Notes: generated from the sequence alone by a model not told the origin. A stretch of DNA of 64,000 nucleotides from Phycisphaerae bacterium (GCA_041478555.1 JBGOWI010000003.1:8408-72407); one strand, 5' to 3'; shown: positions 15,607-41,357, counted from the stretch's first letter. Made by a program: numbers and translations.

Positions 15607-17229
15607 TTATTGTGTTGATGTCAGTGCGGGACCCGGCATAAAAACTGCCTTTACCGCTCCTTTTTCACACATCTTCTTGAGTAGCTCAACTATTTGAGAA
15701 TATGAGACGCCAAGACCCAGCCGTTCTTTTTTGTCTTGTGGGGCAGGTTCATCGCCGAGAATTTTAATTACATCGGCAAGTCTGAAACTGGTTTTCAAAG
15801 GCCCCATCAGTTCGCCGGTAACCGGATGTTTACGCATTATGGAAATTCGGTTTTCATCCGCGAGAGAGTTAATTATGATTTGGCCGTCGTCGGATTCAAT
15901 GAATATGTCTTTTTCGCAGTCAATCGGTGCGCCGAAAAGAACAATTCTCGGCTCAGTCTTTCTTGAGACATAAACGGTTTTGGGGGCCAGCTCGAGCACC
16001 TCGTCTATGTAAAAATCCTGTGCTACAGCCGTTCGGACAATGGACGTATCATCGTATTTCTGCAGGAATTTGTAGGCGGTGTATCTTACGTTAAAATCTT
16101 CATCGCGGACCATTCTGCTCATAAGGGCGATACAATCGCGTTTTTGGCCGGCGTTTCCAACCGCCTCGATTGCAGTGAGGCGGACCGGCGAGGCCCTGTC
16201 CTGGGCAAATTCCCTCAGATACTTCAAAGCCCTGTCATCGCCGATATTAAGCAGGCATCTTGCTGCGCTGAATTTTGTTTGCAGGTCTTCGCTTTCGAGC
16301 AGCGGCAAAAGTCTGTCGACGGCCGGTTTGCCGATGGCTTCAAGGCCGGTTTCGTATTTTTCCTTTTCCGGCTCGGTTTTCAGCTTTTCAACAAGCGAAT
16401 TTATCCGGCTGTCTTCAGCTACTGCGGTTGAACTAATATAAAGCGCCTTTACCAGTTCGATGAATCTTTCTTTTCTGTCCTTGAATTCTCCAGGCAGGGA
16501 CAGATAAATTATGCTTTCAGAAGCGGCAGTTGCGGTATCTCTGCCGAATCGCCCATTTATGCGGTTTCGTATGGCCGCAGCGGCGCGAAAATCAGGCCTG
16601 AAAAGCGCCAGCAGAATCTGATGGTTTTGTATAACTTTGCCGCCGCCGAGCACGTAACCTATCCGCTGGTCGGGTTTTGGCTCTGCAATGTTGTCGATGT
16701 AAACTGCACCGGCTGCGAGAGCGAGTGTCTTTGAAGCCATAATGACTTCTTCGACTCGGCCGACGAGCTTTAGCTCGGTAGTGTAGAGTCTGCCGTCCGC
16801 CAGGGATGTTGTCTGTGTATTGGGCAGAGCCTTTACGCTGACGTCAAAGGCCTTCTGCTTTACGGCGCCGGCAGGTATGAAGCCTTCGACGAGCACAACA
16901 GCGGTATCCATGCTGTTTATCATCATATCAGGGTTGACTGTTTTCCCCTGGCCGACCTGGGCCAAAATGTACTGGTGCAGGTAATCCCTGATGGCAGGAG
17001 GACATTCAGCTGAGCCGGTATTGGAAAGGCCCACTACCAGTCCTATGCCCTTGACGGGTATGGGGTTAAAGGATACGAACTCGGCAAGGTCGCTGATGGT
17101 ACTGTCGAGCTGTATTGGCTGAGCAGGTTCGATTTTTTTCTTTTTGCTTTTCGGCTGTTCGCCGCAGCCGGCAAGAAAAAGCATTAAAATCGCAACGATG
17201 AGGATATTGTAAATATTACGGGTTTTCAT
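15607..17229 (-). CDS. Lipoprotein with a FlgI (flagellar P-ring)-like N-terminal domain fused to HEAT/armadillo-like repeats
   Basis: Lipobox LFLAGC. GIGLVVGLSNTGS and the following roughly 150 aa align by eye to the FlgI core (GYGLVVGLDGTGD...). The C-terminal half carries HEAT-like LLPLLESEDLQTKFSAARCLLNIGDDRA repeats. ATG at 17229 has an AGGTGG SD. Confidence 0.6.
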   Translation of the reverse strand: MKTRNIYNILIVAILMLFLAGCGEQPKSKKKKIEPAQPIQLDSTISDLAEFVSFNPIPVKGIGLVVGLSNTGSAECPPAIRDYLHQYILAQVGQGKTVNPDMMINSMDTAVVLVEGFIPAGAVKQKAFDVSVKALPNTQTTSLADGRLYTTELKLVGRVEEVIMASKTLALAAGAVYIDNIAEPKPDQRIGYVLGGGKVIQNHQILLALFRPDFRAAAAIRNRINGRFGRDTATAASESIIYLSLPGEFKDRKERFIELVKALYISSTAVAEDSRINSLVEKLKTEPEKEKYETGLEAIGKPAVDRLLPLLESEDLQTKFSAARCLLNIGDDRALKYLREFAQDRASPVRLTAIEAVGNAGQKRDCIALMSRMVRDEDFNVRYTAYKFLQKYDDTSIVRTAVAQDFYIDEVLELAPKTVYVSRKTEPRIVLFGAPIDCEKDIFIESDDGQIIINSLADENRISIMRKHPVTGELMGPLKTSFRLADVIKILGDEPAPQDKKERLGLGVSYSQIVELLKKMCEKGAVKAVFMPGPALTSTQ

Positions 17230-17305
17230 AGCACCACCTGAAATTAAAGACACTGCCGCTCAGGATGATATTGCTGATAAGGCGTGCAGTCAAGAAATTA
17301 TATGG

Positions 17306-19548: not shown

Positions 19549-20478
19549 TCACCTGCTCAACTGTTCAACTGCTCTGTGTCTTCGTCCAAGGAGGGCCAAT
19601 CCGCCAAAAGTCAGCAAAACAATAGATGCAGGCTCAGGAACCCACACCGCGATACCCCACGGCCTCATCAAACCCGAGGCAAACGTTGACCTGTTTCCGC
19701 TCGAGTCGAATTTATAAATCGTCCCGTCGCCCTCGTCAACCACCACGTAGAGATAGCCGCTGCTGTCAAAGGCAAGACCATTAAGAGAGGGAATGATAGG
19801 CCAGGGGTTGTTCCAGCCCGAGGCGAAAAGAGTGCTGTTTCCGTTCGAATCGAACTTCACAATCGTCTCGCTTCCGGTTGTTGCGTAGAGATTGCCGCTG
19901 GCGTCAAACGCAAGGTCCGTAGCGCTGACCCCCGATGCAAAGATAGACTCATTTCCATTCGTATCAAACTTCTCAATTGTATTATTGTAAGTAATGGCCG
20001 CATAGAGATTGTCGCTGCCGTCGAAGGCAAGACCATACGGTTGGTTCGAGCACGAGACGAAGGTTGACCTGTTTCCGCTCGAGTCGAATTTCTCAATCGT
20101 GCCGTCACGGCTGCTTACGTAGAGATTGCCGTTTCTATCAAAAGCAATACCTGAAGACAGGTTGTTCATATCGGCAAAGGTAGATTGATTTCCGCTCGAA
20201 TCAAATTTATAAATTCCCCCTGGCGTCCCCTGCCGGGCGGCCTTCGTAGTTGCGTAGAGATTACCGTTTCTATCAAAAGCGAAACCTGAAGGCAGGTTAT
20301 TCAAAGAGGCAAAGGTGGATTGATTTCCGTTCGAATCGAATTTCTCAATCGTCCCATCACTCGACACGTAGATAGTATCAGCGTATGTGAAACTGCTGAT
20401 TAGCAGGAATAACACAACGATAGGGAGGAACACTGCGCAAAGCGAATAACAGTTTGTCTTCATTTTCTCTTCCTCCAA
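19549..20478 (-). CDS. Six-bladed NHL-like beta-propeller protein with a PEP-CTERM anchor
   Basis: Six repeats of about 40 aa (GTIEKFDSxGNxSTFAS...LAFDxxGNLY) and a C-terminal VPEPASIVLLTFGGLALLGRRHR. An alternative start exists at 20463. Confidence 0.72.
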   Translation of the reverse strand: MEEEKMKTNCYSLCAVFLPIVVLFLLISSFTYADTIYVSSDGTIEKFDSNGNQSTFASLNNLPSGFAFDRNGNLYATTKAARQGTPGGIYKFDSSGNQSTFADMNNLSSGIAFDRNGNLYVSSRDGTIEKFDSSGNRSTFVSCSNQPYGLAFDGSDNLYAAITYNNTIEKFDTNGNESIFASGVSATDLAFDASGNLYATTGSETIVKFDSNGNSTLFASGWNNPWPIIPSLNGLAFDSSGYLYVVVDEGDGTIYKFDSSGNRSTFASGLMRPWGIAVWVPEPASIVLLTFGGLALLGRRHRAVEQLSR

Positions 20479-23902: not shown

Positions 23903-25768
23903 GTGACAAAGAAGAAAACAGAAAATAAGGCAAAAAAGGAGCAGAAGACGGCTGTAAAAAAGGCGGAAAAGAAAGTCGAAGCGATAGAATCTGCCGAGAC
24001 TGTACAAAGCCAGCAGCAGCAACCACAGCAACAACCACAGCAGCCACAGCCGCCAGCGGCTGGGCAGCCCCAAAAACCCGGCGATATTATTGAGGAGAAA
24101 ATCAAGCTCATTATCGAAAAGGCAAAAAAGAAGGGCTATATAACCTACGAGGAAATGAATAATGAGCTGCCTGACGAGTCGATTTCGCCCAATCGCCTTG
24201 AAAGTCTTATTATGACCCTCGATGAGATGGGAATAACCCTGCTCGACGAGGCTGAGCTCGAAAAGCAGCGGGAGGAAGAAGACGCCTTCGAGGTTGACGA
24301 CGATGTGCTTGTCGATGAGGAGGCGGCAGAAGAAGAGAGCGAAGATTTGCTGCTTGAGACCGAACTGATTGAGGGAACCATCGGCAGGATAGACGACCCG
24401 GTGCGTATGTATCTTACGCAGATGGGCGAGATACCGCTGCTTACGCGGGAGCAGGAAATATCTCTGGCCCGCAAGATTGAGCTTACCCGGATGGTGTTTC
24501 GGCGAAAGGTGCTGGAAAGCGATTATTCCGCGTTGAATGCTATTGAGATTCTGCAGCAGGTCAGCGAAGGAACACTGCCGTTTGACAGGACGATGAAGAT
24601 GAGCAGCGCTGAAAATCTTGTTCGCTCTGTTGTCAGGAGCAGACTGCCTGAAAATATGAAGACGGTCAACAAGCTGCTGGCCAGCAATGTGAAACTTTTT
24701 GCGGATTTTTTAAAGCAGCAGGACGAAGCAGCGAAGAAGAAAGTGATAAAGCAAATTCGGCGAAGTCGCCGAAAGGTTGCCACGCTGCTTGAGGAATTGA
24801 GCCTGCGAACAAGCAGAATACAGCCTATGATGAAGAAACTTGAGGGAATTCTGTCCAAAATGCGGCAGCTTGAGCAGTATATAGCGGCGGGGCCTAATGC
24901 CGATTACATCGAGGAAGATATCGATGCGATGAAACAGGAGTTCAACGGCTTGCAGGAAATGGTGCTTGAGATACCTGAGCAGCTTGAAAAGCGTCTGCGT
25001 GCCGTCAGAGCGGTCTTCGCACAGTATGAGGAGACAAAGAGGCTGCTTGCGAGCGGAAACTTAAGGCTTGTTGTGTCAATCGCCAAGAAATACCGCAACA
25101 GAGGACTCAGTTTTCTTGACATAATCCAGGAAGGCAATACTGGGCTGATGCGGGCAGTCGACAAGTATGAATACCGCAGGGGCTATAAGTTCAGCACTTA
25201 TGCGACGTGGTGGATAAGGCAGGCTATTACACGAGCCATTGCCGACCATGCCCGGACTATCAGAATTCCCGTGCACATGATTGAAATGATGAGCAAACTG
25301 CGGACAGTAAGCAAAGAGCTTCTGCAGAAGTTAGGCAGAGAGCCGACAATTGAGGAAATTGCAACTGAAACGGCATTGAGCGTTTCAGAGGCCCGCAGGG
25401 TTCTGAAGATTTCGAAGCATCCGATAAGCCTTGACAGGCCGATAGGCGAAAGCGAGGACAGTTATTTCGGCGATTTTATTGAGGACGAGACGGCAGAATC
25501 GCCGGTACAGTCCGCCACGCATGAGATGCTCAAGGAGCGAATCGACGAGGTTTTAAAGACCCTGACCTACCGCGAGCGTGAGATTATCAAGCTGCGTTAC
25601 GGCCTTGGCGACGGCTATACCTATACGCTTGAAGAGGTCGGCAGGATTTTCAAGGTAACCCGCGAACGCGTAAGGCAGGTCGAGGCAAAGGCGATAAGAA
25701 AAATTCAGCACCCGGTAAGATGCAGACGGCTGGAAGGATTTATGGACCATAAAGGTGTTGCATTATAA
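23903..25768 (+). CDS. rpoD: RNA polymerase sigma factor RpoD (GTG start), with a Q/P-rich N-terminal low-complexity tract
   Basis: Regions 1.2-4.2 are recognisable ([82 protein letters not shown]). Confidence 0.95.
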
Positions 25769-27529: not shown

Positions 27530-27602
27530 AAATATTTTAAATTTCCTGTTGCAGACTTTTTTACACCCTGGTATTTTTTGTTTGTTCTTTTGAAAAAAAA
27601 TA

Positions 27603-27795
27603 TCTGATTGCAGGTCCGGCCTTTCAGGTCGGATATGTAAAAGGGAACACGGTGAAAATCCGTGGCGGTCGCGCCGCTGTAAGCGTCTGTCCTGATATAA
27701 TTCAGGAGGCCGAAAGGAGTTGTCCCACTGTTCTTTTTGGATGGGAAGGGTTCTTTCGGCGAAGCGCAAGTCAGAAAACCTGCCTGTGATTGGTG
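27603..27795 (+). promoter_or_regulatory. Cobalamin (B12) riboswitch
   Basis: Core AAAAGGGAACACGGTGAAAATCCGTGGCGGTCGCGCCGCTGTAAG, internal GTCCCACTG, and a B12-box-like AGTCAGAAAACCTGCC (27769-27784) all match the conserved cobalamin riboswitch blocks. Confidence 0.8.
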
Positions 27796-27871
27796 ATTTG
27801 TTGAGGGTTCTCGCGTAAGGAACGCCAGCAAATGCGCCCCTTAGGGGTGTTGTTTGTTTAGATATTTATAA

Positions 27872-27906
27872 GCCGCCGTTCCTTTTGTGGGAACGGCGGC
27901 TTTTTT
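27872..27906 (+). terminator. Intrinsic terminator, probably the riboswitch expression platform
   Basis: 11-bp stem gccgccgttcc / ggaacggcggc with a 7-nt loop followed by T6 (27901-27906). It lies between the aptamer and the RBS GGAGA of the 27969 gene. Confidence 0.65.
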
Positions 27907-27968
27907 ATTGGCTTTTAATTATTCCCACAAAATCCTACGGTTTTTTATGAGAAAAGGAGAAGAAAAGT

Positions 27969-28757
27969 ATGAGTACAAAGATTTTCACGATTTTGTCGGT
28001 AGTTTTAAGCATCGCTTTTATCGTAAATGCTTCAGTTGTAACTTTTGATGATAATCTGCTTTTGCCGGAGAGCCATTGGGGCGGTGCCGGCTCAGGTGAA
28101 ACTGGTTTTAGCAGCGGCGGAGTCAACTTTTATCATAATGATGGAGGGTATTCATGGGACGGATTTATTTACTCAAACATGACCGATACGACCACAGCCG
28201 GTTACGAAAATCAATTTAGCGCTTATGCCGGCGGAGGTGTCAACGGTTCGAATAATTATGCTATATCGGCTCTCAGCCTTAATTGGACCGGCAGTTATGA
28301 TGTTATCCCGACATCGATAAGTTTCGCAAACCCATGCGCAGTTTTTGGGGCTTATTTTACCAACACTACTTATGCTGCTTTAGATATGCTTGCAGGCAGT
28401 GGTTTCAGTAAGAAATTTGGCGGCGATACTGGCGGCGACGAAGACTGGTTTAAATTAACCGTTACCGGCAAAGACGCATCGGATTTGGTAACTGGTACAA
28501 TTGATTTCTATCTTGCTGATTATCGTTTTGAAGACAGTGGTCAGGATTATATAGTCGATAGCTGGGAATATATTGACTTGCATTCACTGGGTACGATAAA
28601 GAGTCTCGAATTTGCCCTCAGTTCCAGTGATGTTGGAGACTGGGGGATGAATACGCCTGCATATTTTGCTATGGATAATCTTGTAATTCCGGAACCGGCG
28701 ACTTTAATTTTGACGGGCTTGAGCGGATTATTGTTGTCTCGAAGGAGGAGAATATAA
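27969..28757 (+). CDS. Secreted DUF4465-like protein with a PEP-CTERM anchor
   Basis: Signal peptide; VVTFDD...ESHWGG...WDGFIYSNMTDTTTAGYENQFSAYAGGG...NYAI...WFKLTVTG...FYLADYRF...NTPAYFAMDNLVI resembles my recollection of the DUF4465 family. The C-terminus IPEPATLILTGLSGLLLSRRRRI is PEP-CTERM. Confidence 0.7.
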   Translation: MSTKIFTILSVVLSIAFIVNASVVTFDDNLLLPESHWGGAGSGETGFSSGGVNFYHNDGGYSWDGFIYSNMTDTTTAGYENQFSAYAGGGVNGSNNYAISALSLNWTGSYDVIPTSISFANPCAVFGAYFTNTTYAALDMLAGSGFSKKFGGDTGGDEDWFKLTVTGKDASDLVTGTIDFYLADYRFEDSGQDYIVDSWEYIDLHSLGTIKSLEFALSSSDVGDWGMNTPAYFAMDNLVIPEPATLILTGLSGLLLSRRRRI

Positions 28758-29669
28758 ATGTTAAAAAAAACTGTTTTGGTTTTTGTCTTTTTCTGCCCTG
28801 TTTTGCTGGGCGGTCCTTATGCTCCGCCGGCAGGTCAGGCAGGCTCAACAGCTATTGATATGAATGACCCCAATATCGTTGCCTGGGCTAAGGCTGCCGT
28901 TATTGAGCGCGGTTATATTGACATCAGCAGGCCTGAATTGGGATATGTCAGCTTTGGTGATGGTACAAATTGTCTCGGTCATGCTCAGTGCGACATTTAT
29001 AACGTGTATAGCGTGGTAAGTCTTGGTGATGGAGGAATGGCTACGCTCAGCTTTCAAAATCCAATAACAAATGGAGATGGATATGATTTCGCGGTTTTTG
29101 AAAACAGCTTCAGCGACAGCTTTTTAGAGCTTGGATTTGTTGAAGTCAGCAGCGATGGCAATAATTTCTTTTGTTTTGATGCTGTTTCGCTTACAGACCC
29201 TAATACTCAAGTCGGTACTTTCGGCAGTGTGGATGCGACTAATATCCATAATCTTGCCGGCAAATATAGAGCAGGTTACGGCACACCGTTTGACCTGCAG
29301 GAGCTTGCCGGTATCGAAGGTTTGGATGTTAATTCGATTACGCATGTAAGGATAATCGATGTGGTGGGCTGTATTCAGTCTGCTGATTTTAATAATGACG
29401 GATTTGTGAATTTTTCTGATTACAGCATACTAAATGCTGCGTATTTAAGTAAACCTCAGGATGCTCGATGGAATCAGCGATGCGATATCGCTGTTCCTTA
29501 TAGGGTTATTGACATGGCTGATATCGAACAGTTTATGTTTGAATGGCTTGCTGAATGGTCAAGCATGGACTCTCTTGGCAATAAAATAAATGACCCCTGG
29601 CCGACCCCCTTTTCCACCGGCGGTTTCGACCTGGATGCGGTAGGCGTGATTCATCAAAAGCAGCCATAG
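28758..29669 (+). CDS. Secreted hypothetical protein with a dockerin-like calcium-loop module
   Basis: Signal peptide MLKKTVLVFVFFCPVLLG; central GYDFAVFENSF...ELGFVEVSSDG block; ADFNNDGFVNFSDYSILNAAYL dockerin-like loop. The start codon directly abuts the upstream stop. Confidence 0.65.
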   Translation: MLKKTVLVFVFFCPVLLGGPYAPPAGQAGSTAIDMNDPNIVAWAKAAVIERGYIDISRPELGYVSFGDGTNCLGHAQCDIYNVYSVVSLGDGGMATLSFQNPITNGDGYDFAVFENSFSDSFLELGFVEVSSDGNNFFCFDAVSLTDPNTQVGTFGSVDATNIHNLAGKYRAGYGTPFDLQELAGIEGLDVNSITHVRIIDVVGCIQSADFNNDGFVNFSDYSILNAAYLSKPQDARWNQRCDIAVPYRVIDMADIEQFMFEWLAEWSSMDSLGNKINDPWPTPFSTGGFDLDAVGVIHQKQP

Positions 29670-29683
29670 GTTGAGAGTGATTT

Positions 29684-30466
29684 ATGATTGCATCAAAAAA
29701 AGCATTTACGCTTGTAGAACTGCTGGTTGTTATGGCAATAATAGCCTTGCTTATGGGTATTTTGATACCTACCCTCGGTTCGGCACGTTCGCAGGGCAAA
29801 GCAGTTGTTTGTAGAAGCAATCTTTATCAGCTTGTGCTGGCAAGTACTGGTTATGCGATGGAAAACGATGGTTATTTCGTCTTGGCGGCGCTGGATATTT
29901 ATACCACGAACAACCAGCGTTGGCATGGTGTACGTTGTAATAACAACAGTCCCTTTGACTCAAGCAAAAGCCCTATTTCCTCCTACCTCGTCGACGGCAA
30001 AATCAAACAATGCCCTCAAAAGGTTAACTTCAGAAAAGGAGACCCGTGGGAGTTTAACTATGAGGATGGATGCGGCGGATACGGCTATAATATGTTTTAT
30101 GTAGGCTCAAGAATATGGGAGGGGGATAGCGATGAAAATTGTAAAAAGCCCGTCAGAAATGTTGAAGTTGCCTCGTCGGCCCAAACAGTAATGTTCGCTG
30201 ATTGTGCAATGGCCAAAGCAGATAGAGGGAAGCCTTATTACTTGGAGTATTCATTTGCTGAACCGCTGTTTAACGGATGGGGCTATGCGTGGCCCTCGAT
30301 ACATTTCAGGCATAGGGGCAGGGCGAATGTCGGCTGGGCGGATGGACATACAAGTTCAGAGACAATGACTGATTTTAATATAGTTATTTATGATGGGATT
30401 AATTCATCCGATGTGATGCTTGGCTGGTTCGGGCCGCTTGACAACAGCTTGTTCGATTTGAAGTAA
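29684..30466 (+). CDS. Prepilin-type N-terminal cleavage/methylation domain protein of the DUF1559 (H-X9-DG) family
   Basis: KKAFTLVELLVVMAIIALLMGILIP (a class III signal) and HRGRANVGWADGH (H-X9-DG). It starts 14 nt after the previous gene. Confidence 0.85.
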   Translation: MIASKKAFTLVELLVVMAIIALLMGILIPTLGSARSQGKAVVCRSNLYQLVLASTGYAMENDGYFVLAALDIYTTNNQRWHGVRCNNNSPFDSSKSPISSYLVDGKIKQCPQKVNFRKGDPWEFNYEDGCGGYGYNMFYVGSRIWEGDSDENCKKPVRNVEVASSAQTVMFADCAMAKADRGKPYYLEYSFAEPLFNGWGYAWPSIHFRHRGRANVGWADGHTSSETMTDFNIVIYDGINSSDVMLGWFGPLDNSLFDLK

Positions 30467-30576: not shown

Positions 30577-31326
30577 GTGAAAAGGATTATAAATTCGGCT
30601 GGAAATTTTTTTAAGAACCTGCGGCAGATTGCCTGGCGGAATTACTGCCGCCTCTGCGATGCCGCTATTTGTGAAGATGACGAATATTTCTGCTCCGACT
30701 GCTGGCAGAGGCTGGGATTTTGTATTGTTGATTCATACTGTCTCCGTTGCGGCAAAGAGTTAAGCGTTTTTGCAAAGCTGCCGGACGGTTGTGCCGACTG
30801 TCGCGGGCAAAATCTCGATTTTGATTCGATTGCCTGTGCAGGCGTTTATCGGGAACCGTTAAGGAACCTGATTATTAAATTTAAATTGTCTGACCGCACG
30901 TATCTTCTCGAACCTCTTTTGAATCTTGCACGGGATGCGATTCTTCGCTCGGATTTTTCCGACTCTGTGGATTTTATTGTGCCAGTACCGCTGCATTGGC
31001 GAAGGAGATTTCAGCGGGGTTTCAATCAGTCAGCGCTCATCGCCAAAGGCCTAAACTTCGGCAATGCGAGGTTCAACACCGACCTTGTTCGCATCCGTTA
31101 TACCCAACAGCAGACTGAGCTTACAACAGCAGCAGCAAGGAGAAAAAATGTCAAAGGCGCTTTTGCCGTCAGGAAAGGGCATAATTTTAAAGGCAAAAAT
31201 ATCTGTCTTGTTGATGACGTCAAAACGACCGGAGCAACACTGAATGAATGTGCGAAGACCTTGAAAGAGGCAGGGGCGAACAAGGTTTTTGCGTTTGTGT
31301 TGGCTGTTGCAGGACAACACGAGTAG
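30577..31326 (+). CDS. comF: ComF-family protein (phosphoribosyltransferase fold with an N-terminal zinc ribbon)
   Basis: CxxC...CxxC...CxxC...CxxC N-terminus and the PRT motif ICLVDDVKTTGATL. Confidence 0.85.
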   Translation: MKRIINSAGNFFKNLRQIAWRNYCRLCDAAICEDDEYFCSDCWQRLGFCIVDSYCLRCGKELSVFAKLPDGCADCRGQNLDFDSIACAGVYREPLRNLIIKFKLSDRTYLLEPLLNLARDAILRSDFSDSVDFIVPVPLHWRRRFQRGFNQSALIAKGLNFGNARFNTDLVRIRYTQQQTELTTAAARRKNVKGAFAVRKGHNFKGKNICLVDDVKTTGATLNECAKTLKEAGANKVFAFVLAVAGQHE

Positions 31327-35741: not shown

Positions 35742-36437
35742 GTTGTGGATTGACATCAGGTCGGGATTTGTTACACTAACCGTCAGGAAAACCGTCAGCC
35801 CCAGTATGTTGTGGATTGACATCAGGTCGGGATTTGTTACACTGCTTTCCAGGCAAAGGATTCAGCTTCGCCGGTTGTGGATTGACATCAGGTCGGGATT
35901 TGTTACACTTATGCGGCCGGCAGATATCGAAACGTCCGGGTTGTGGATTGACATCAGGTCGGGATTTGTTACACTCGATAAGAGCGGAGATGCCTGCAGA
36001 AGCACGTTGTGGATTGACATCAGGTCGGGATTTGTTACACTCTTTGCCATTCCGCATATTCCGTATGATGAGTTGTGGATTGACATCAGGTCGGGATTTG
36101 TTACACTTCGGGCAAGCCGACGTTCACGGACCATGCGGTTGTGGATTGACATCAGGTCGGGATTTGTTACACTGGAAAAGTTGTCCTATAGCTATAACAT
36201 CTAGTTGTGGATTGACATCAGGTCGGGATTTGTTACACTAACATATATTTGCGCCATTAGTCTATTCCCGTTGTGGATTGACATCAGGTCGGGATTTGTT
36301 ACACTGCTCGTAATGGCCGAAGACTACGGCAAGGCGTTGTGGATTGACATCAGGTCGGGATTTGTTACACTCAGATGTTTGATATCATAAAGTGGGTCAT
36401 TGTTGTGGATTGACATCAGGTCGGGATTTGTTACACT
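35742..36437 (+). CDS. PLACEHOLDER Confidence 0.
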
Positions 36438-36468
36438 ACCTGTTCCGCAACCTGAGCAATTGTAAGGA

Positions 36469-36918: not shown

Positions 36919-37806
36919 TTAAATTTTTGGTAATTCAATTTCCTTCTGTTCTCCGCAAAAGCATCTTACAAGCGATGCCGCTGTCCGATGAAGCCCGACC
37001 ATTAGCGGCCCTTTATAATCTGCAATTTCAACCTCATCATAAAGCACCTCAAGCAGTCTTGCTTTTATCGTCTGCGTTAATTCCTCCCAGTCTCCGCCTT
37101 CAACAATTTCCTTAACTTTCGCCTCAACAAATCCTCTGAAAGGCTCGACCAAATCATCTGCAAGGCAAAACGCGTTATACCTGTTTCGATGATGAAGTCC
37201 GACAGAAGGCAATAATCCTGCGCTGCAAATCGCACGCGCCACCGCCGCCCGCATTACCATATAACCGTAATTCAATAGATTATTCGGCGGCTTCCCTTCA
37301 GCATCTCTTCTGAATTCCAAACCTTGAATATAGGCACTCCAGAATAATTTGCTTGCCCTCGCCTCGATATTAGAAGGGTCGCCGCTGCGAACCTGACTTA
37401 TCAATGCTGTTAATGCTTTGTAAGTTTGCGTTTCGTCTTTGATAAGTTTTGCCTGATGTCTGATTTTCGCGCGTACTATCTGCTGCCAGAGTTTCTTTTT
37501 GAGCGGCTCTTTTGCGTTTATCTGTTTTGCGTATCTTTCGGTTTGGATTGTATTGGCTTCTATCGGCAAAAGCATCCCGGCTGGCAAATGATTGCTGTCA
37601 CAAAGCACCACAGCCGCGCCGCATTTTAATAATTCAGTAAAAACACAGTGTGTATAATTTGTCGCTTGATTATCGACTAAAAGTACGCCAATGTCTTCAC
37701 AGGGTATTGAGCTTGTATCTTTACCGTCCTGCTTAATAACTAACTGGCCGTATTTTATTGATAGAGATGTCCTTTCCCGCGAAATCTCTATTATCTTTTT
37801 AATCAA
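36919..37806 (-). CDS. cas1: CRISPR-associated endonuclease Cas1 (type II)
   Basis: 295 aa with conserved Cas1 blocks (NLLNYGYMVMRAAVARAICSAGLLPSVGLHHRNRYNAFCLADDLVEPFR). Confidence 0.95.
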   Translation of the reverse strand: MIKKIIEISRERTSLSIKYGQLVIKQDGKDTSSIPCEDIGVLLVDNQATNYTHCVFTELLKCGAAVVLCDSNHLPAGMLLPIEANTIQTERYAKQINAKEPLKKKLWQQIVRAKIRHQAKLIKDETQTYKALTALISQVRSGDPSNIEARASKLFWSAYIQGLEFRRDAEGKPPNNLLNYGYMVMRAAVARAICSAGLLPSVGLHHRNRYNAFCLADDLVEPFRGFVEAKVKEIVEGGDWEELTQTIKARLLEVLYDEVEIADYKGPLMVGLHRTAASLVRCFCGEQKEIELPKI

Positions 37807-37808
37807 AC

Positions 37809-40800
37809 TTAATCTCTAATTAGTTCCTTAACTTCGCCAAGCGGACTTATCCACACTTTAACAGGTGGTTGCCCTTCTTCAATGCCGAGATGTTGAATAT
37901 CGGAAGGCTTTAAACCGCCTGTTTTGCTGCCCGTTTTTTTGACTTCTTCTCTCGCTTTGGCTTTTTCTGTTTCTTTGTCTCTTCCTGCATCATAGTGAGG
38001 GGTAAAGTGTATTGTGCCGGTGCCATCTATCTTAAAAACAACAAAATACCCCGGCACTTTGGTTTCGGGATGTCGCATATAAACCATCTCGCCGATTGAT
38101 AAGGACATAACAAATTTGCCATTTTGGGAATCATCACGATTAATTGCAGGCAGAGGTTTTAGCCCGCTTGATTTTGGCGGATTTACTCTTTTTGCGGCAT
38201 CAAAATTTCTAATAACCTCACCGGTCCATTTTTCTTTTTCATTTTCTCTGATTTCTATGTGATGGTTATTCTGTGGCTCGTATGCCCTAATTGCTTTTTG
38301 GTGAGGGTCATATTCCATTTTACCGGTGCTTAAATTCCACTGCTTTCGTGGAATTGTTATTACAGTTGGAGACCGCAAAAGAGTAAATTGGCGGATAGGG
38401 ACTCCGCTTTTTAGAAACAGGCCTTTTTCTTTGACAAGTTTTTTTATTTCTTTTTCGCTGAAATTGTCGGGGTCTAACCCTTCAGTTCTCAGGCATTCTC
38501 TTATTTCTTCTCTAAACCATCTATCACGAATTACACCGGATTTCCCGGGTTTTACATCCGGCAGTTTAAGCATTTCTAATCTTATAGATTTTCGTTCCCG
38601 CTTTGATGAGCAGTTTTTCAGTTTTTCCCGCAGTTCATCCCAACCTTTAAGCACTTGTAAATGGTTTGGGGTCAGTTCAATAGCAAATTTGCGTAAGGTA
38701 AATTGTTCGGTCAAATTTCCATCCTTATCAAGTATTGGGCCGTATTGTGTATCATTATGGAAAGCCCCAACTATTTTTCGGGCGGCGGGCCTGTGAGAAA
38801 CTACCAAATTTCTCCATTCATTCATAACCTGCGCACGGAAACTTTCGACATTTCCCCATGGTGGGCTTATCAGTGGTCTCTCCGCAAGTTTTTTGCCCTC
38901 TTCTTCGGCTTTCTCAAGTTTTTGGAATAGCAGCGAAATTTGTTGCACTCTATCCGGCCCTGAGAGCGCTATAGCAACAGCGTCTAAGGCGTGATGCCTA
39001 TGGTCAGAACGGTTTTTTTCAAAAGGTTCTCCCTTTTTGCTGTCTGGGAAAAGCTGCCAATCTCTGCGCAAAAGTGCTGTATATCGCCCGCTTGTTGTAA
39101 AAACTCTTTTGATTCCATCTCTTTCTCCATTATAAAGAACATCTCGAAGCCAGTTAACAACTTGTTTTGCGGCGTATGCTGCATCTGTAAGTTGCGAAGC
39201 TACGAATTCGTCTAAATCTGGCGCATCTTTATGAAGATTATCCCACTTTACTAGATTTTTTTCCTTGAGATGCCTTAACCTCTGTTCAAACTTCTGAAAC
39301 CGTTCTTCGGTGAACCACTCTTTTGGGGTTTTGTTCCCTTTCCCACGGTTACAGCCAGTATGGCAAAGTAATAAATTACTCAGAAAGCTATTTCCTCCAC
39401 GACTCTCTGGTATTATGTGGTCGATTTCAACCCCATTTCCTTCTGCCGCAGTTTTTTCGCTGATAGCGTTGATTCCGTTACCACAATATGCACATTGCTC
39501 TTTCTGCTCTCGACAAAGTAATACCCTTTTAACGGCCTTTTCCTGCTGATTTTTGGTTTTTTGTTCCAAACCAAATTCTTCCATTATTTTTCTTTTTTCT
39601 TCTTCACGCTCTCGATTTTCAGATAGTTTTTTATTTCTCACAACCGCTGATTGTCTGGCTTCTCTTACCAGTTCAACTATTACTCTGTCAGGTTTACAAC
39701 CGAATTTTCTTATATGTTCCTGGATGTGCCGCTTTACTTCATGGATTGCCTTGCGGACAACAGGATTACTTAGCATTGCCGGCGCAGGCGGTAGTAAATC
39801 AGGATGTTTTTGTTGAAATCTCCGCATTGCATGATTACCACTGCCTCCTTTGAAACTATACCGTCTTCTTTGCTCATTCGTTGCTCCATTTGTCGCATCT
39901 TCTGCGAAAAGATTTCTTGCCTCATTAACCGTAAATCCGTCACGCATATATGGAAGCAAATTTTTTATAGCTCTCCTGGAATACTCCAGCCGATCTTCTG
40001 CTTTTGGCCGTTTTGTCCACGCTTCTATAAACTTTTCAGCCTGTTTCTCATCAAAGCCCCACCATTTTTTACAGCCTTCCGCTAAATACTTTTTGTCTTT
40101 TTCAGAGGTCGGGTCAAACTTTAATATGGCTTTATTTACTGAGTCTTTTTGTGCCGATGTAAGCTTCTCCCAATTCGATTCACTAATTGCACTAGAGATT
40201 ATTTCACGATAAAACCACCATGTGTTTAATTTTCTCTTTGGGTCAGCGTCTAAACTCAACGTATAAAGGGTTTTATTTTCTCCTTTATGAAGCCCTAATG
40301 CTTTTCTTGCTGTTGCAGCGGTAACGGTCTTTTGATCTTTTAGAACCTCAAAAACCTTTGGTTTTTCCTCGTTATTCAACGGTCTCGAAACTTCACCTGG
40401 CGGAGTTATCCTTATATTGTTTAATGTCTCAAGGACAAGATAATCCTGAGCGTACATATCAGCCTTGGGGCATTTAAGGTCAGTAGGTTCCAAATCGCAC
40501 CTTCCCATAGTTCCCATATCCCAGTATGTTTTACGCTGACCAAATAATATTCCTTTATATCTCCACGTTGCATCGCTCGAATTGTCATCAAGTTTTTTTC
40601 TGACAGGGTCAGTTAACTGATTTGCAAGTTCACCATTAAAAGATTTCTGTTTTTTCCACAGAGTATCAAATTCATTCCAGAGCAGGTCTCGGTCTGCACA
40701 AAATTCATATGTGGGTTCTTTGGCAGCGTTTGTCCGATTGCGAATTGCCTGTCCCACTTTTATAACATTGCCGTTTGCGTCTTTTTTCTGAAGAGGTGTT

Positions 40801-41357
40801 TTTCTTTCTTCGTAAAGCACTGCCATCAATTCCCCAAAGGTTCTTGCATTGCGATTTTTCATTTCCTCTTTCGCATGGTCGATTGCCCCTTTGATTTTCT
40901 TTGCCTCTTTGTCTTTTGTCTCTGTATTTTTGCTGTTCTCTTGTTCCTCTTTTTCAGTATTTTCTGGTTGTTCCGGCTCCTCGTTAAATCCATACGCTCC
41001 TCGTCGTTGCACAAGGTGCAATAGAACACGACCGAATTCACGAGGCGTAAGCTCTCCGTCAAGGCCTTTTTTTCTCAAAGACCATGGGTTTAATTTCATC
41101 TCTGTATCAGTGGGCGTCCAACTCAACTCCGCTAAGAATTTTCGCATTTGCCATTTCCTTTCGGCACGGCGTTCAATGCTTCTGCGTTGGCCACGATAGG
41201 TTCGTCTTGCTTGGTTTTTAGGTGCGCCGCGTTTGTCTTCTGATTCCTCTACCCCCGCAGGAAACACACCTACGCCCATTTTTATTATTCGCTCGTCTGT
41301 GTCAACTCCTGCTGAACCGACCGAATTTGTACCAATATCTAATCCCAACAATTTCAT
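37809..41357 (-). CDS. cas9: CRISPR-associated endonuclease Cas9, 1182 aa (type II-C architecture)
   Basis: RuvC-I LGLDIGTNSVGSA, Arg-rich bridge helix RRTYRGQRRSIERRAERK, RuvC-II IVELVREA, HNH EIDHIIPESRGGNSFLSNLLLCHTGCNRGKGNKTP and RuvC-III HHALDAVAIAL are all present. AGGAG SD upstream of ATG 41357. No csn2 or cas4 in the locus. Confidence 0.95.
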   Translation of the reverse strand: MKLLGLDIGTNSVGSAGVDTDERIIKMGVGVFPAGVEESEDKRGAPKNQARRTYRGQRRSIERRAERKWQMRKFLAELSWTPTDTEMKLNPWSLRKKGLDGELTPREFGRVLLHLVQRRGAYGFNEEPEQPENTEKEEQENSKNTETKDKEAKKIKGAIDHAKEEMKNRNARTFGELMAVLYEERKTPLQKKDANGNVIKVGQAIRNRTNAAKEPTYEFCADRDLLWNEFDTLWKKQKSFNGELANQLTDPVRKKLDDNSSDATWRYKGILFGQRKTYWDMGTMGRCDLEPTDLKCPKADMYAQDYLVLETLNNIRITPPGEVSRPLNNEEKPKVFEVLKDQKTVTAATARKALGLHKGENKTLYTLSLDADPKRKLNTWWFYREIISSAISESNWEKLTSAQKDSVNKAILKFDPTSEKDKKYLAEGCKKWWGFDEKQAEKFIEAWTKRPKAEDRLEYSRRAIKNLLPYMRDGFTVNEARNLFAEDATNGATNEQRRRYSFKGGSGNHAMRRFQQKHPDLLPPAPAMLSNPVVRKAIHEVKRHIQEHIRKFGCKPDRVIVELVREARQSAVVRNKKLSENREREEEKRKIMEEFGLEQKTKNQQEKAVKRVLLCREQKEQCAYCGNGINAISEKTAAEGNGVEIDHIIPESRGGNSFLSNLLLCHTGCNRGKGNKTPKEWFTEERFQKFEQRLRHLKEKNLVKWDNLHKDAPDLDEFVASQLTDAAYAAKQVVNWLRDVLYNGERDGIKRVFTTSGRYTALLRRDWQLFPDSKKGEPFEKNRSDHRHHALDAVAIALSGPDRVQQISLLFQKLEKAEEEGKKLAERPLISPPWGNVESFRAQVMNEWRNLVVSHRPAARKIVGAFHNDTQYGPILDKDGNLTEQFTLRKFAIELTPNHLQVLKGWDELREKLKNCSSKRERKSIRLEMLKLPDVKPGKSGVIRDRWFREEIRECLRTEGLDPDNFSEKEIKKLVKEKGLFLKSGVPIRQFTLLRSPTVITIPRKQWNLSTGKMEYDPHQKAIRAYEPQNNHHIEIRENEKEKWTGEVIRNFDAAKRVNPPKSSGLKPLPAINRDDSQNGKFVMSLSIGEMVYMRHPETKVPGYFVVFKIDGTGTIHFTPHYDAGRDKETEKAKAREEVKKTGSKTGGLKPSDIQHLGIEEGQPPVKVWISPLGEVKELIRD

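Follow-up and report, generated by a model that had tools for sequence, protein, structure and literature searches.

The systems closest to the locus described here are those through which bacteria acquire vitamin B12 (cobalamin) under riboswitch control. In Escherichia coli, a cobalamin riboswitch shuts off acquisition genes when B12 is plentiful (the BtuB-BtuFCD system with its btuB riboswitch), and in Bacteroides thetaiotaomicron the Btu system (BtuJ, BtuH, BtuK, BtuL, BtuG and BtuB) consists of riboswitch-repressed operons of secreted, surface-tethered proteins that handle corrinoids. The present locus, an operon of three genes (genes 1, 2 and 3) preceded by a cobalamin riboswitch, occupies positions 27595-30466 of a 64,000-nucleotide stretch of DNA from Phycisphaerae bacterium (GCA_041478555.1 JBGOWI010000003.1:8408-72407), the whole of which is hereafter called the window. 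It probably serves the capture of corrinoids in the cell envelope of a Sedimentisphaerales-like planctomycete, as a module that B12 represses and that has a BtuJ-family binder at its centre.

Compared to the E. coli system, the unit lacks a TonB-dependent transporter (TBDT), a periplasmic BtuF and an ABC importer, and its regulation appears to work via transcription termination. With the B. thetaiotaomicron system it has in common a BtuJ-family protein, encoded by gene 1 and bearing the MNTPxY loop; in environmental Bacteroidota, besides, the gene 2 family is found between btuJ and btuG, next to btuB. Four differences from B. thetaiotaomicron can be pointed out: (i) the window and all the loci of the same type in the Planctomycetes-Verrucomicrobia-Chlamydiae (PVC) superphylum and Armatimonadota (PVC-type loci) are devoid of BtuB and BtuG; (ii) anchoring relies on a PEP-CTERM signal and a dockerin-like module instead of lipidation; (iii) no sequence similarity could be detected between the gene 2 family and BtuH, BtuK or any solved protein, BtuL lying outside this comparison; and (iv) the prepilin-type protein of the PVC cassette, encoded by gene 3, has no counterpart in Bacteroides.

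A further term of comparison is provided by the DUF4465 B12 binders of PVC bacteria (Coraliomargarita D5EK51/9HMU, Mucisphaera and Haloferula; PMC13398666), which share with gene 1 the family, the signal peptide and an environmental PVC origin. The only neighbours given there for DUF4465 genes are TonB-dependent receptors, ABC transporters and DUF5074 propellers, with no mention of riboswitch-linked PEP-CTERM versions, of the gene 2 family or of prepilin-type partners (PMC13398666). Gene 3, in turn, resembles the pseudopilins of type II secretion systems and the H-X9-DG/DUF1559 family (PF07596, TIGR04294) of PVC bacteria in its cleavage/methylation motif with Glu at +5, its exact H-X9-DG motif and its length of ~260 aa; compared to the broader H-X9-DG/DUF1559 family, the gene 3 proteins of the cassette make up a distinct conserved subfamily tied to B12-riboswitch cassettes. 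In the searchable literature, no function is assigned to any H-X9-DG/DUF1559 family member and no link of DUF1559, H-X9-DG, prepilin or PEP-CTERM with cobalamin is found. In short, the role of gene 1 is already known; the family of gene 2 and the association with a pseudopilin do not seem to have been described before.

The original prediction, made from the window sequence, had proposed a surface module for corrinoid capture, repressed by B12 and attached via exosortase instead of a lipobox, that would provide DUF1559-type proteins with a functional context. The lines of evidence presented below lend support to this proposal: the conserved riboswitch and terminator, the family to which gene 1 belongs, the regulon in which gene 2 takes part and the invariable adjacency of gene 3 to gene 2 in the PVC-type loci.

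The riboswitch and the operon

The covariance model of the cobalamin riboswitch (RF00174) matches positions 27595-27801 (+) over its whole length (model positions 1-189 of 189), with 95.2 bits against a gathering score of 31.5 and E 2e-22, and homologous aptamers are present upstream of orthologous cassettes. The original prediction had placed the aptamer at 27603-27795, within this match, and had suggested the RF00174 search from which the match derives; the core and B12-box strings that it quoted are both present.

A terminator hairpin with a T-run is located 70-100 nt 3' of the aptamer. Its stem (27870-27902) has 14 pairs, nine of them G-C, and a 5-nt loop, is followed by T6 and has a computed energy of -24.5 kcal/mol, the whole intrinsic terminator of the expression platform spanning 27870-27908 (+). 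The 11-bp stem with T6 previously reported at 27872-27906 is close enough to this computed structure. An equivalent strong hairpin with a T-run lies 3' of the aptamer in 9/9 Planctomycetota leaders examined, with stem sequences that vary and pairing that is kept. When the terminator stems are aligned, 87.9% of the cells are paired, compared to 38-64% with the partners slid, a pairing count that must be taken as a lower bound because the alignment register is imperfect for two divergent sequences; in 6 of the 12 pairs, both sides have changed.

The segment AAGGAACG (27817-27824, +) can pair with CGTTCCTT (27877-27884), which forms part of the 5' arm of the terminator, with a duplex energy of -14 kcal/mol. 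In the minimum-free-energy fold, AAGGAACG is sequestered by a hairpin at 27796-27833, and the leaders of relatives contain similar GGAAC segments comparable to it. Judging from these duplex energies and alternative folds, AAGGAACG is a candidate anti-terminator of the leader. The structure of the leader and its conservation suggest, as regards the direction of switching, an OFF switch based on transcription termination. When intracellular B12 is sufficient, the aptamer would bind B12, the G+C-rich hairpin with its T-run would form and transcription would halt 5' of gene 1; when B12 is scarce, AAGGAACG would pair with the 5' arm of the terminator, resulting in read-through into the genes.

Downstream of the leader, a ribosome-binding site (AAGGAG, 27954-27959, +), read from the sequence, lies 9 nt 5' of the ATG of gene 1. 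The three open reading frames (ORFs) are found at 27969-28757, 28758-29669 and 29684-30466; the second directly adjoins the first (0 nt) and 14 nt precede the third, in agreement with the tight packing and the gaps first described. The two terminator-like matches inside gene 2 are at chance level (5 found in the region vs. 4.3 expected from shuffles). The initial statement that there is no known B12 transporter among these genes is borne out for the window at large: a Pfam scan of 25 window ORFs detected no btuB, btuG or btuFCD, and TBDT and BtuG were likewise sought with tblastn throughout the window and not found.

Gene 1 encodes a BtuJ-family protein

Gene 1 (27969-28757, +) encodes a secreted BtuJ-family (DUF4465) jelly-roll protein with a PEP-CTERM anchor. 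The DUF4465 profile (PF14717, IPR027828) matches residues 62-238 (28152-28682) over profile positions 5-176 of 176, with 185.3 bits (gathering score, 25) and E 1.7e-54, and the tail IPEPATLILTGLSGLLLSRRRRI (28686-28751) scores 21.2 with TIGR02595 (cutoff, 16), PF07589 staying under its cutoff (16.4 vs. 20.7). Both the DUF4465 match and the terminal PEP-CTERM signal had been correctly recognized at the outset. By contrast, the tentative assignment of DUF4465 to BtuH was mistaken, as the literature gives BtuJ1/BtuJ2 (PMC12751083, PMC13398666) for this family, and the fold of BtuH differs (PMC12751083, PMC13616437, PMC8941943).

The protein is homologous to proteins with B12-bound crystal structures (9hmu_A, E 8e-27; 9fct_B, E 3.8e-21; 9i2l_B, E 2.1e-6) and is 41% identical to Coraliomargarita D5EK51 over 204 residues. 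Residues 227-232 (28647-28664) read MNTPAY and fit, hallmark tyrosine included, the MNTPSY/MNTPxY sequence of the corrin-binding loop of BtuJ (PMC12751083). Apart from BtuJ1 and BtuJ2, six divergent DUF4465 proteins bind B12, among them one from a member of the Phycisphaerae, Mucisphaera calidilacus (PMC13398666), and B12 binding has been found in every DUF4465 member tested (PMC13398666, PMC12751083).

Judging from this homology, gene 1 is a new member of a published family, and it cannot be regarded as undescribed because DUF4465 is the BtuJ family of B12 binders. What is new in it is the PEP-CTERM anchor, lipoproteins being what the literature reports for most of the family. The product of gene 1 would be a BtuJ-family jelly-roll that binds corrinoids tightly and is held by a PEP-CTERM/exosortase anchor instead of the lipid anchor of Bacteroides.

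Gene 2 is a habitual partner of BtuJ in B12 loci

Gene 2 (28758-29669, +) encodes a secreted protein with a beta-sandwich core, into which a dockerin-like two-loop calcium module is inserted (~29382-29558). The conserved core comprises residues ~20-208 and 268-300, and the alignment places the inserted module of the window copy at ~209-267; other members have the dockerin-like module at the C-terminus or, in its stead, a PEP-CTERM or type IX secretion system (T9SS) tail. The original prediction of a secreted protein of unknown family stands; the dockerin-like calcium loop that it also described is below threshold in the window copy (PF00404, 15.6 vs. a gathering score of 22.9). The family profile matches the solved dockerin 2y3n_B across both repeats (E 6.8e-4), and 9 of 42 homologs match PF00404 (best E 7.6e-8).

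In none of 42 diverse members is the core assigned to a Pfam family, and its sole named relative is NF033170, a model of the uncharacterised Leptospira lipoprotein LIC_13355, to which 33 of the 42 members show weak matches, always far under the cutoff. The family is large: an exhaustive search returned 2,042, 1,416 and 779 clusters (50% identity) at E<=1e-3, 1e-10 and 1e-30, respectively, and a genome scan found relatives in at least 546 species-level genomes.

Sequence homology to BtuH, whose family was delimited in the literature by BLAST E<=0.03 (PMC8941943), was not found: the single sequence, the 42-member profile and two Bacteroidota members gave no match to 7BIZ or 8BLW at E<=10, and the domain isolated from a BtuG fusion was likewise negative. 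The AlphaFold2 model of gene 2 (predicted local distance difference test score, pLDDT, 82) finds weak matches only in the Protein Data Bank with Foldseek, headed by beta-sandwiches of the F5/8 type C (discoidin)/CBM32 kind; entries that contain BtuH are also matched (8blw_B, E 5.2e-4, prob 1.00; 7biz_B, E 1.5e-2, prob 0.96; template modelling score, TM, ~0.3 in both). Of these, 8blw_B corresponds to BtuG1/BtuGH, in which the BtuH domain lies C-terminal to a propeller (PMC10404256). A longer alignment to 8blw_B is most probably an over-extension and is not counted as a sequence link of gene 2 to BtuH.

The genomic company of gene 2 was studied in a sample of 80 species-level loci carrying a gene 2 homolog, with an nhmmer aptamer profile that recovers 12/12 Rfam-positive and 0/6 Rfam-negative loci as riboswitch detector. 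A cobalamin riboswitch was found upstream, on the same strand, in 58/80 loci, and several of the negative ones are contigs that end early. The original prediction had proposed looking for riboswitches ahead of orthologous operons, and these counts, together with the aptamer and terminator kept upstream of orthologous cassettes, are in line with what it anticipated.

In Bacteroidota, the typical gene orders are: (i) TBDT, DUF4465, gene 2 and BtuG; or (ii) a 567-aa T9SS-tailed protein, gene 2, TBDT and BtuG. The propeller encoded in these loci is a BtuG homolog (E 3.9e-62 to solved BtuG structures). The 567-aa protein, of unknown family (L001 6083-7786; homologs in ~15 Bacteroidota loci), occupies the DUF4465 position 5' of the gene 2 homolog in riboswitch-controlled loci; no solved relative was found for it by sequence. 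As the order of B. thetaiotaomicron operon 2 is J2-H2-L-G2-B2 (PMC12751083), these arrangements place gene 2 in the slot held there by BtuH2 and BtuL. In a contig labelled Akkermansia sp. (L081), the gene 2 homolog and its neighbours have T9SS-type tails and are followed by a TonB-dependent-like receptor, a Bacteroidota-style layout suggesting that the taxonomic label of this contig from a metagenome-assembled genome may be wrong.

Gene fusions are also frequent: DUF4465 followed by gene 2 in Planctomycetota (L085/L086 and L013), gene 2 followed by DUF4465 in Bacteroidota (L044 and L055), and three further gene 2/DUF4465 fusions among the cluster representatives. One representative, P0370, consists of a DUF5074/BtuG-type propeller, a gene 2 domain and a T9SS tail, in that order. 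It is alike in layout to BtuGH (BT1490, PDB 8BLW chain B), with the gene 2 domain at the position of BtuH, and hence has a BtuGH architecture in which gene 2 takes the place of BtuH.

An alternative function for gene 2 has to be weighed here, namely, that it is a discoidin/CBM32-like carbohydrate or surface anchor that holds BtuJ-type binders at the wall, S-layer or glycan coat with no corrinoid contact of its own, like BtuL. The F5/8 type C and CBM32 domains at the top of the fold matches would fit such a role, as would the dockerin, PEP-CTERM or T9SS attachment modules that gene 2 proteins bear, and at least one accessory protein encoded in a B12 operon is known not to bind the vitamin (PMC12751083). 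Nevertheless, both BtuH-domain entries figure among the fold matches, the fusion of a gene 2 domain to a BtuG propeller exactly reproduces the architecture of BtuGH, and separate genes 1 and 2 usually have an anchor each, which makes a pure tether seem redundant; on balance, the anchor function is unlikely. The preferred reading, in which gene 2 takes part in corrinoid handling, is that of a habitual BtuJ partner which would most likely receive or hand on the corrinoid, or else dock the complex via its dockerin-like calcium module. The gene neighbourhoods and fusions indicate that gene 2 works with BtuJ and BtuG-type proteins; as a core member of cobalamin-riboswitch regulons in several phyla, it is a leading candidate for a component so far missing from B12 scavenging in the environment.

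Gene 3 and the cassette across phyla

Gene 3 (29684-30466, +) encodes a prepilin-type H-X9-DG (DUF1559-related) protein. Its above-threshold matches are confined to the N-terminal prepilin motif (29693-29764), which scores 29 bits with PF07963 (cutoff, 21.2) and 26.9 with TIGR02532 (cutoff, 16.3); it contains FTLVELLVV, with Glu at +5, and is kept in all 13 orthologs. The H-X9-DG motif (30311-30346) is exact, H210-RGRANVGWA-D220-G221, and its D220 and G221 are invariant across orthologs; the TIGR04294 score, 18.6, falls just under the cutoff of 19. With regard to the three labels that the original prediction had given to this protein, prepilin-type and H-X9-DG apply to the window copy as they stand; as for DUF1559, the profile PF07596 (SBP_bac_10/DUF1559) has no match to this copy at E<=1. 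The profile does match 10 of the 13 cassette orthologs (best E 8.9e-7), and the DUF1559 label is retained on account of these matches and the H-X9-DG motif. Orthologs from four phyla align over their full length, with 29-62% identity, and have the motifs RWHG, GGYGYN, MFADTA and EYxFAEP in common.

Among the 80 loci, a gene 3 ortholog stands beside the gene 2 homolog in 11/11 loci from Planctomycetota, Verrucomicrobiota, Kiritimatiellota and Armatimonadota and in 0/65 from Bacteroidota. The reverse distribution is observed for an adjacent TBDT or BtuG, which is present in 43/65 Bacteroidota loci and in 0/11 PVC/Armatimonadota loci. A recheck with no coverage filter and a PVC-type TBDT query found neither TBDT nor BtuG in 15 PVC-type cassette loci or the whole window, the control (L089) being positive. 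A motif search of the flanks of the PVC loci and of the window revealed no other prepilin-type ORF: all those picked up are cassette gene 3 orthologs. The cassette is also present in unrelated genomic surroundings (L087).

The composition of the cassette is not uniform. In several Verrucomicrobia and Kiritimatiellota, the first gene encodes another conserved PEP-CTERM protein of 320-400 aa with propeller-like repeats, SGPVALDxxGxLYYGA (L027 4762-5958; L032 12-1037; L060 3131-4096; L067 196-1212), for which no Pfam match (L027 copy) and no solved relative (L060 copy) were found. This PEP-CTERM protein may be an alternative corrinoid binder. Since the first gene varies, genes 2 and 3 make up the constant core of the cassette in those Verrucomicrobia. 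The Chthonomonas cassette runs gene 3, DUF4465 and gene 2, with gene 3 located directly 3' of a full-length, sub-threshold AdoCbl-II aptamer (30.7 vs. 36.5 bits, E 5.4e-5).

Some individual loci have additional features. In a Pirellulales locus (L007 6863-8407), a 514-aa beta-propeller of the pyrroloquinoline quinone (PQQ) type, with a dockerin-like C-terminus, is encoded between the gene 2 and gene 3 homologs. In the Kiritimatiellaeota isolate B1221, a second partial cobalamin-riboswitch match appears just 3' of the gene 3 homolog, at the contig end (L067 2894-2947), suggesting a further B12-regulated unit directly downstream. Two downstream genes or gene groups were considered as possible links to a B12 importer and rejected: an ABC system 3' of the cassette in L027, identified as ZnuABC, and, in the Rariglobus locus, a gene ~700 nt 3' of the gene 3 homolog on the same strand (L014 6127-7581), which encodes a CobW-family GTPase. 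No riboswitch was found upstream of the Rariglobus cassette.

The simplest objection to a functional unit is that the arrangement is fortuitous, the riboswitch controlling gene 1 only and genes 2 and 3 being unrelated neighbours. The abundance of H-X9-DG genes in planctomycete genomes speaks for such an arrangement. Against this, the genes lie only 0 and 14 nt apart and no internal terminator is convincing, the cassette is kept across four phyla with different flanks, genes 1 and 2 are repeatedly fused, and every prepilin-type ORF picked up in the PVC loci is the cassette gene 3 ortholog. Such a coincidence is extremely improbable and, according to these comparative sequence data, can be deemed effectively refuted.

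A serious rival concerns gene 3 itself, which could have a dedicated role in secretion or display: it would belong, as a pseudopilin, to a machine akin to type II secretion by which the products of genes 1 and 2 are exported or displayed, would handle no corrinoid and would be co-regulated with them for the export route only. Its N-terminus is a classic prepilin one, with a motif common to GspG, GspH and ComG pseudopilins, both its partners are secreted proteins with sorting tags, and its orthologs go with gene 2 whether the first gene encodes DUF4465 or the other PEP-CTERM protein. On the other hand, the sorting of proteins of the PEP-CTERM/EpsH system is generally attributed to exosortase, acting once Sec has exported them, a route that needs no pseudopilus; so exact a replacement of TBDT and BtuG would be surprising for a helper in secretion; and the same two proteins are exported in Bacteroidota without such a gene. 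For these reasons, a role limited to export is considered rather unlikely, its seriousness as a rival notwithstanding.

A third possibility is that the module serves for extracellular sequestration or storage of corrinoids, as a competitive reservoir, import taking place via an unlinked transporter encoded elsewhere in the genome. On vesicles of B. thetaiotaomicron, BtuJ proteins serve as reservoirs outside the cell (PMC12751083, PMC13616437), none of the PVC loci has a transporter linked to its cassette, and the position of DUF4465 beside a TBDT in some PVC relatives indicates that such transporters exist in the superphylum. But repression by intracellular B12 follows the logic of acquisition, a reservoir must still feed an importer, and the strict alternation of gene 3 with TBDT/BtuG suggests that a transfer step is contained in the cassette; storage as the sole function thus appears quite unlikely.

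Within the preferred reading of an envelope module for corrinoid capture, gene 3 would be processed by prepilin peptidase and sit in the inner membrane or in a pseudopilus, where it would relay the captured corrinoid inward or be needed to deploy the products of genes 1 and 2. A relay or uptake role is suggested by the fact that gene 3 takes the locus position of BtuB and BtuG. Of the three genes, gene 3 is the one whose role is least certain. A bolder extension can be formulated: B12 uptake in Planctomycetota, Verrucomicrobiota, Kiritimatiellota and Armatimonadota might be TonB-independent, with BtuB-BtuG replaced by a dedicated prepilin-type protein of the H-X9-DG/DUF1559 family, which a machine resembling a type II secretion system or a type IV pilus would assemble and which would receive the corrinoid from the BtuJ/gene 2 pair; by further extension, the H-X9-DG family would represent substrate-specific envelope modules for uptake or reception and not structural pilins. 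This extension is speculative and, as a whole, improbable.

Observations that weigh against the proposed capture module

The module has to contend with several observations. With regard to regulation, no riboswitch above threshold precedes the cassette in two of the 11 PVC-type loci, although their upstream DNA is intact, and in a third that DNA is lost at the contig end. With regard to transport, no inner-membrane B12 transporter was found linked to any cassette. Moreover, some PVC DUF4465 genes adjoin a TBDT or stand alone, so that PVC bacteria are not uniformly devoid of TonB-dependent B12 uptake: a relative of D5EK51 with 61% identity lies beside a TBDT, outside the cassette type, and the DUF4465 copy of Paludisphaera is solitary, behind its own riboswitch.

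As for gene 2, four attempts detected no sequence homology to BtuH or to any solved protein, and its best fold matches include generic discoidin/CBM32 sugar-binding domains (TM ~0.3-0.5). Besides, belonging to a B12 operon is no proof of binding, because BtuL, an operon-encoded accessory protein of B. thetaiotaomicron, does not bind cobalamin (PMC12751083). In the case of gene 3, the window copy has Ala, not Gly, at -1 before FTLVE (KKA/FTL); Ala is likewise present in the Sedimentisphaerales copies, whereas the orthologs from Verrucomicrobia, Pirellulales and Chthonomonas have Gly (RG/FTL). The structure model of gene 3 (pLDDT 45) is confident in the N-terminal helix alone and provides no evidence of a pocket or fold. 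Finally, repression by B12, the binding of corrinoids by any of the three proteins and the interaction among them are features that we infer for this operon.

Genomic surroundings

The closest relatives are labelled Sedimentisphaerales or Phycisphaerae. The other scanned ORFs of the window correspond to housekeeping or unrelated functions (SMC, DnaG, MurJ, penicillin-binding proteins and aromatic amino-acid genes) and to a type II CRISPR-Cas9 locus; no B12 enzyme, transporter, secretion machine or exosortase was detected among the 25 ORFs. The ORF at 23903-25768, outside the Pfam scan, is probably rpoD, judging from its translation.

Downstream of gene 3, a ComF/GntX-like phosphoribosyltransferase with a double zinc ribbon is encoded at 30577-31326 (+), with matches to NF008616 and TIGR00201 that are both under cutoff. 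This comF gene lies 3' of gene 3 in the Sedimentisphaerales relatives L002, L003, L005, L006 and L085, and not in L087 or in other phyla. In L002 and L003, its start and the stop of gene 3 are at most 2 nt apart, and there it may be co-transcribed with gene 3. No clear terminator was found between gene 3 and comF. ComF proteins work with competence pseudopili, and the link to gene 3 may or may not be a coincidence. In any case, it is doubtful that comF is a member of the unit, and it is treated here as a syntenic neighbour only.

The type II array of clustered regularly interspaced short palindromic repeats (CRISPR) extends over 35742-36439, with ~10-11 copies of the 36-nt repeat GTTGTGGATTGACATCAGGTCGGGATTTGTTACACT at a 66-nt period; beside it, on the opposite strand, lie cas1 (36919-37806, -) and the gene of a 1182-aa Cas9 (37809-41357, -; RuvC_III, HNH and Cas9 alpha-lobe matches). 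An unusual 548-aa ORF at 15607-17253 (-) combines a flagellar P-ring (FlgI) domain with HEAT repeats. Furthermore, a beta-propeller (SGL/NHL-like) protein with a weak PEP-CTERM tail is encoded at 19549-20478 (-); this second PEP-CTERM-like protein is consistent with a wider use of exosortase sorting in the organism.

Significance

The H-X9-DG/DUF1559 family is among the largest unexplained paralog expansions in planctomycetes and their relatives. One conserved H-X9-DG subfamily is now tied to a ligand (B12), a regulator (the riboswitch) and specific partners, which makes its function directly testable and provides a first functional handle on the family. In addition, the alternation between the pseudopilin and BtuB-BtuG suggests that PVC bacteria may move B12 across the envelope in a different way, and such a different route would bear on B12 cross-feeding in sediments, soils and guts.

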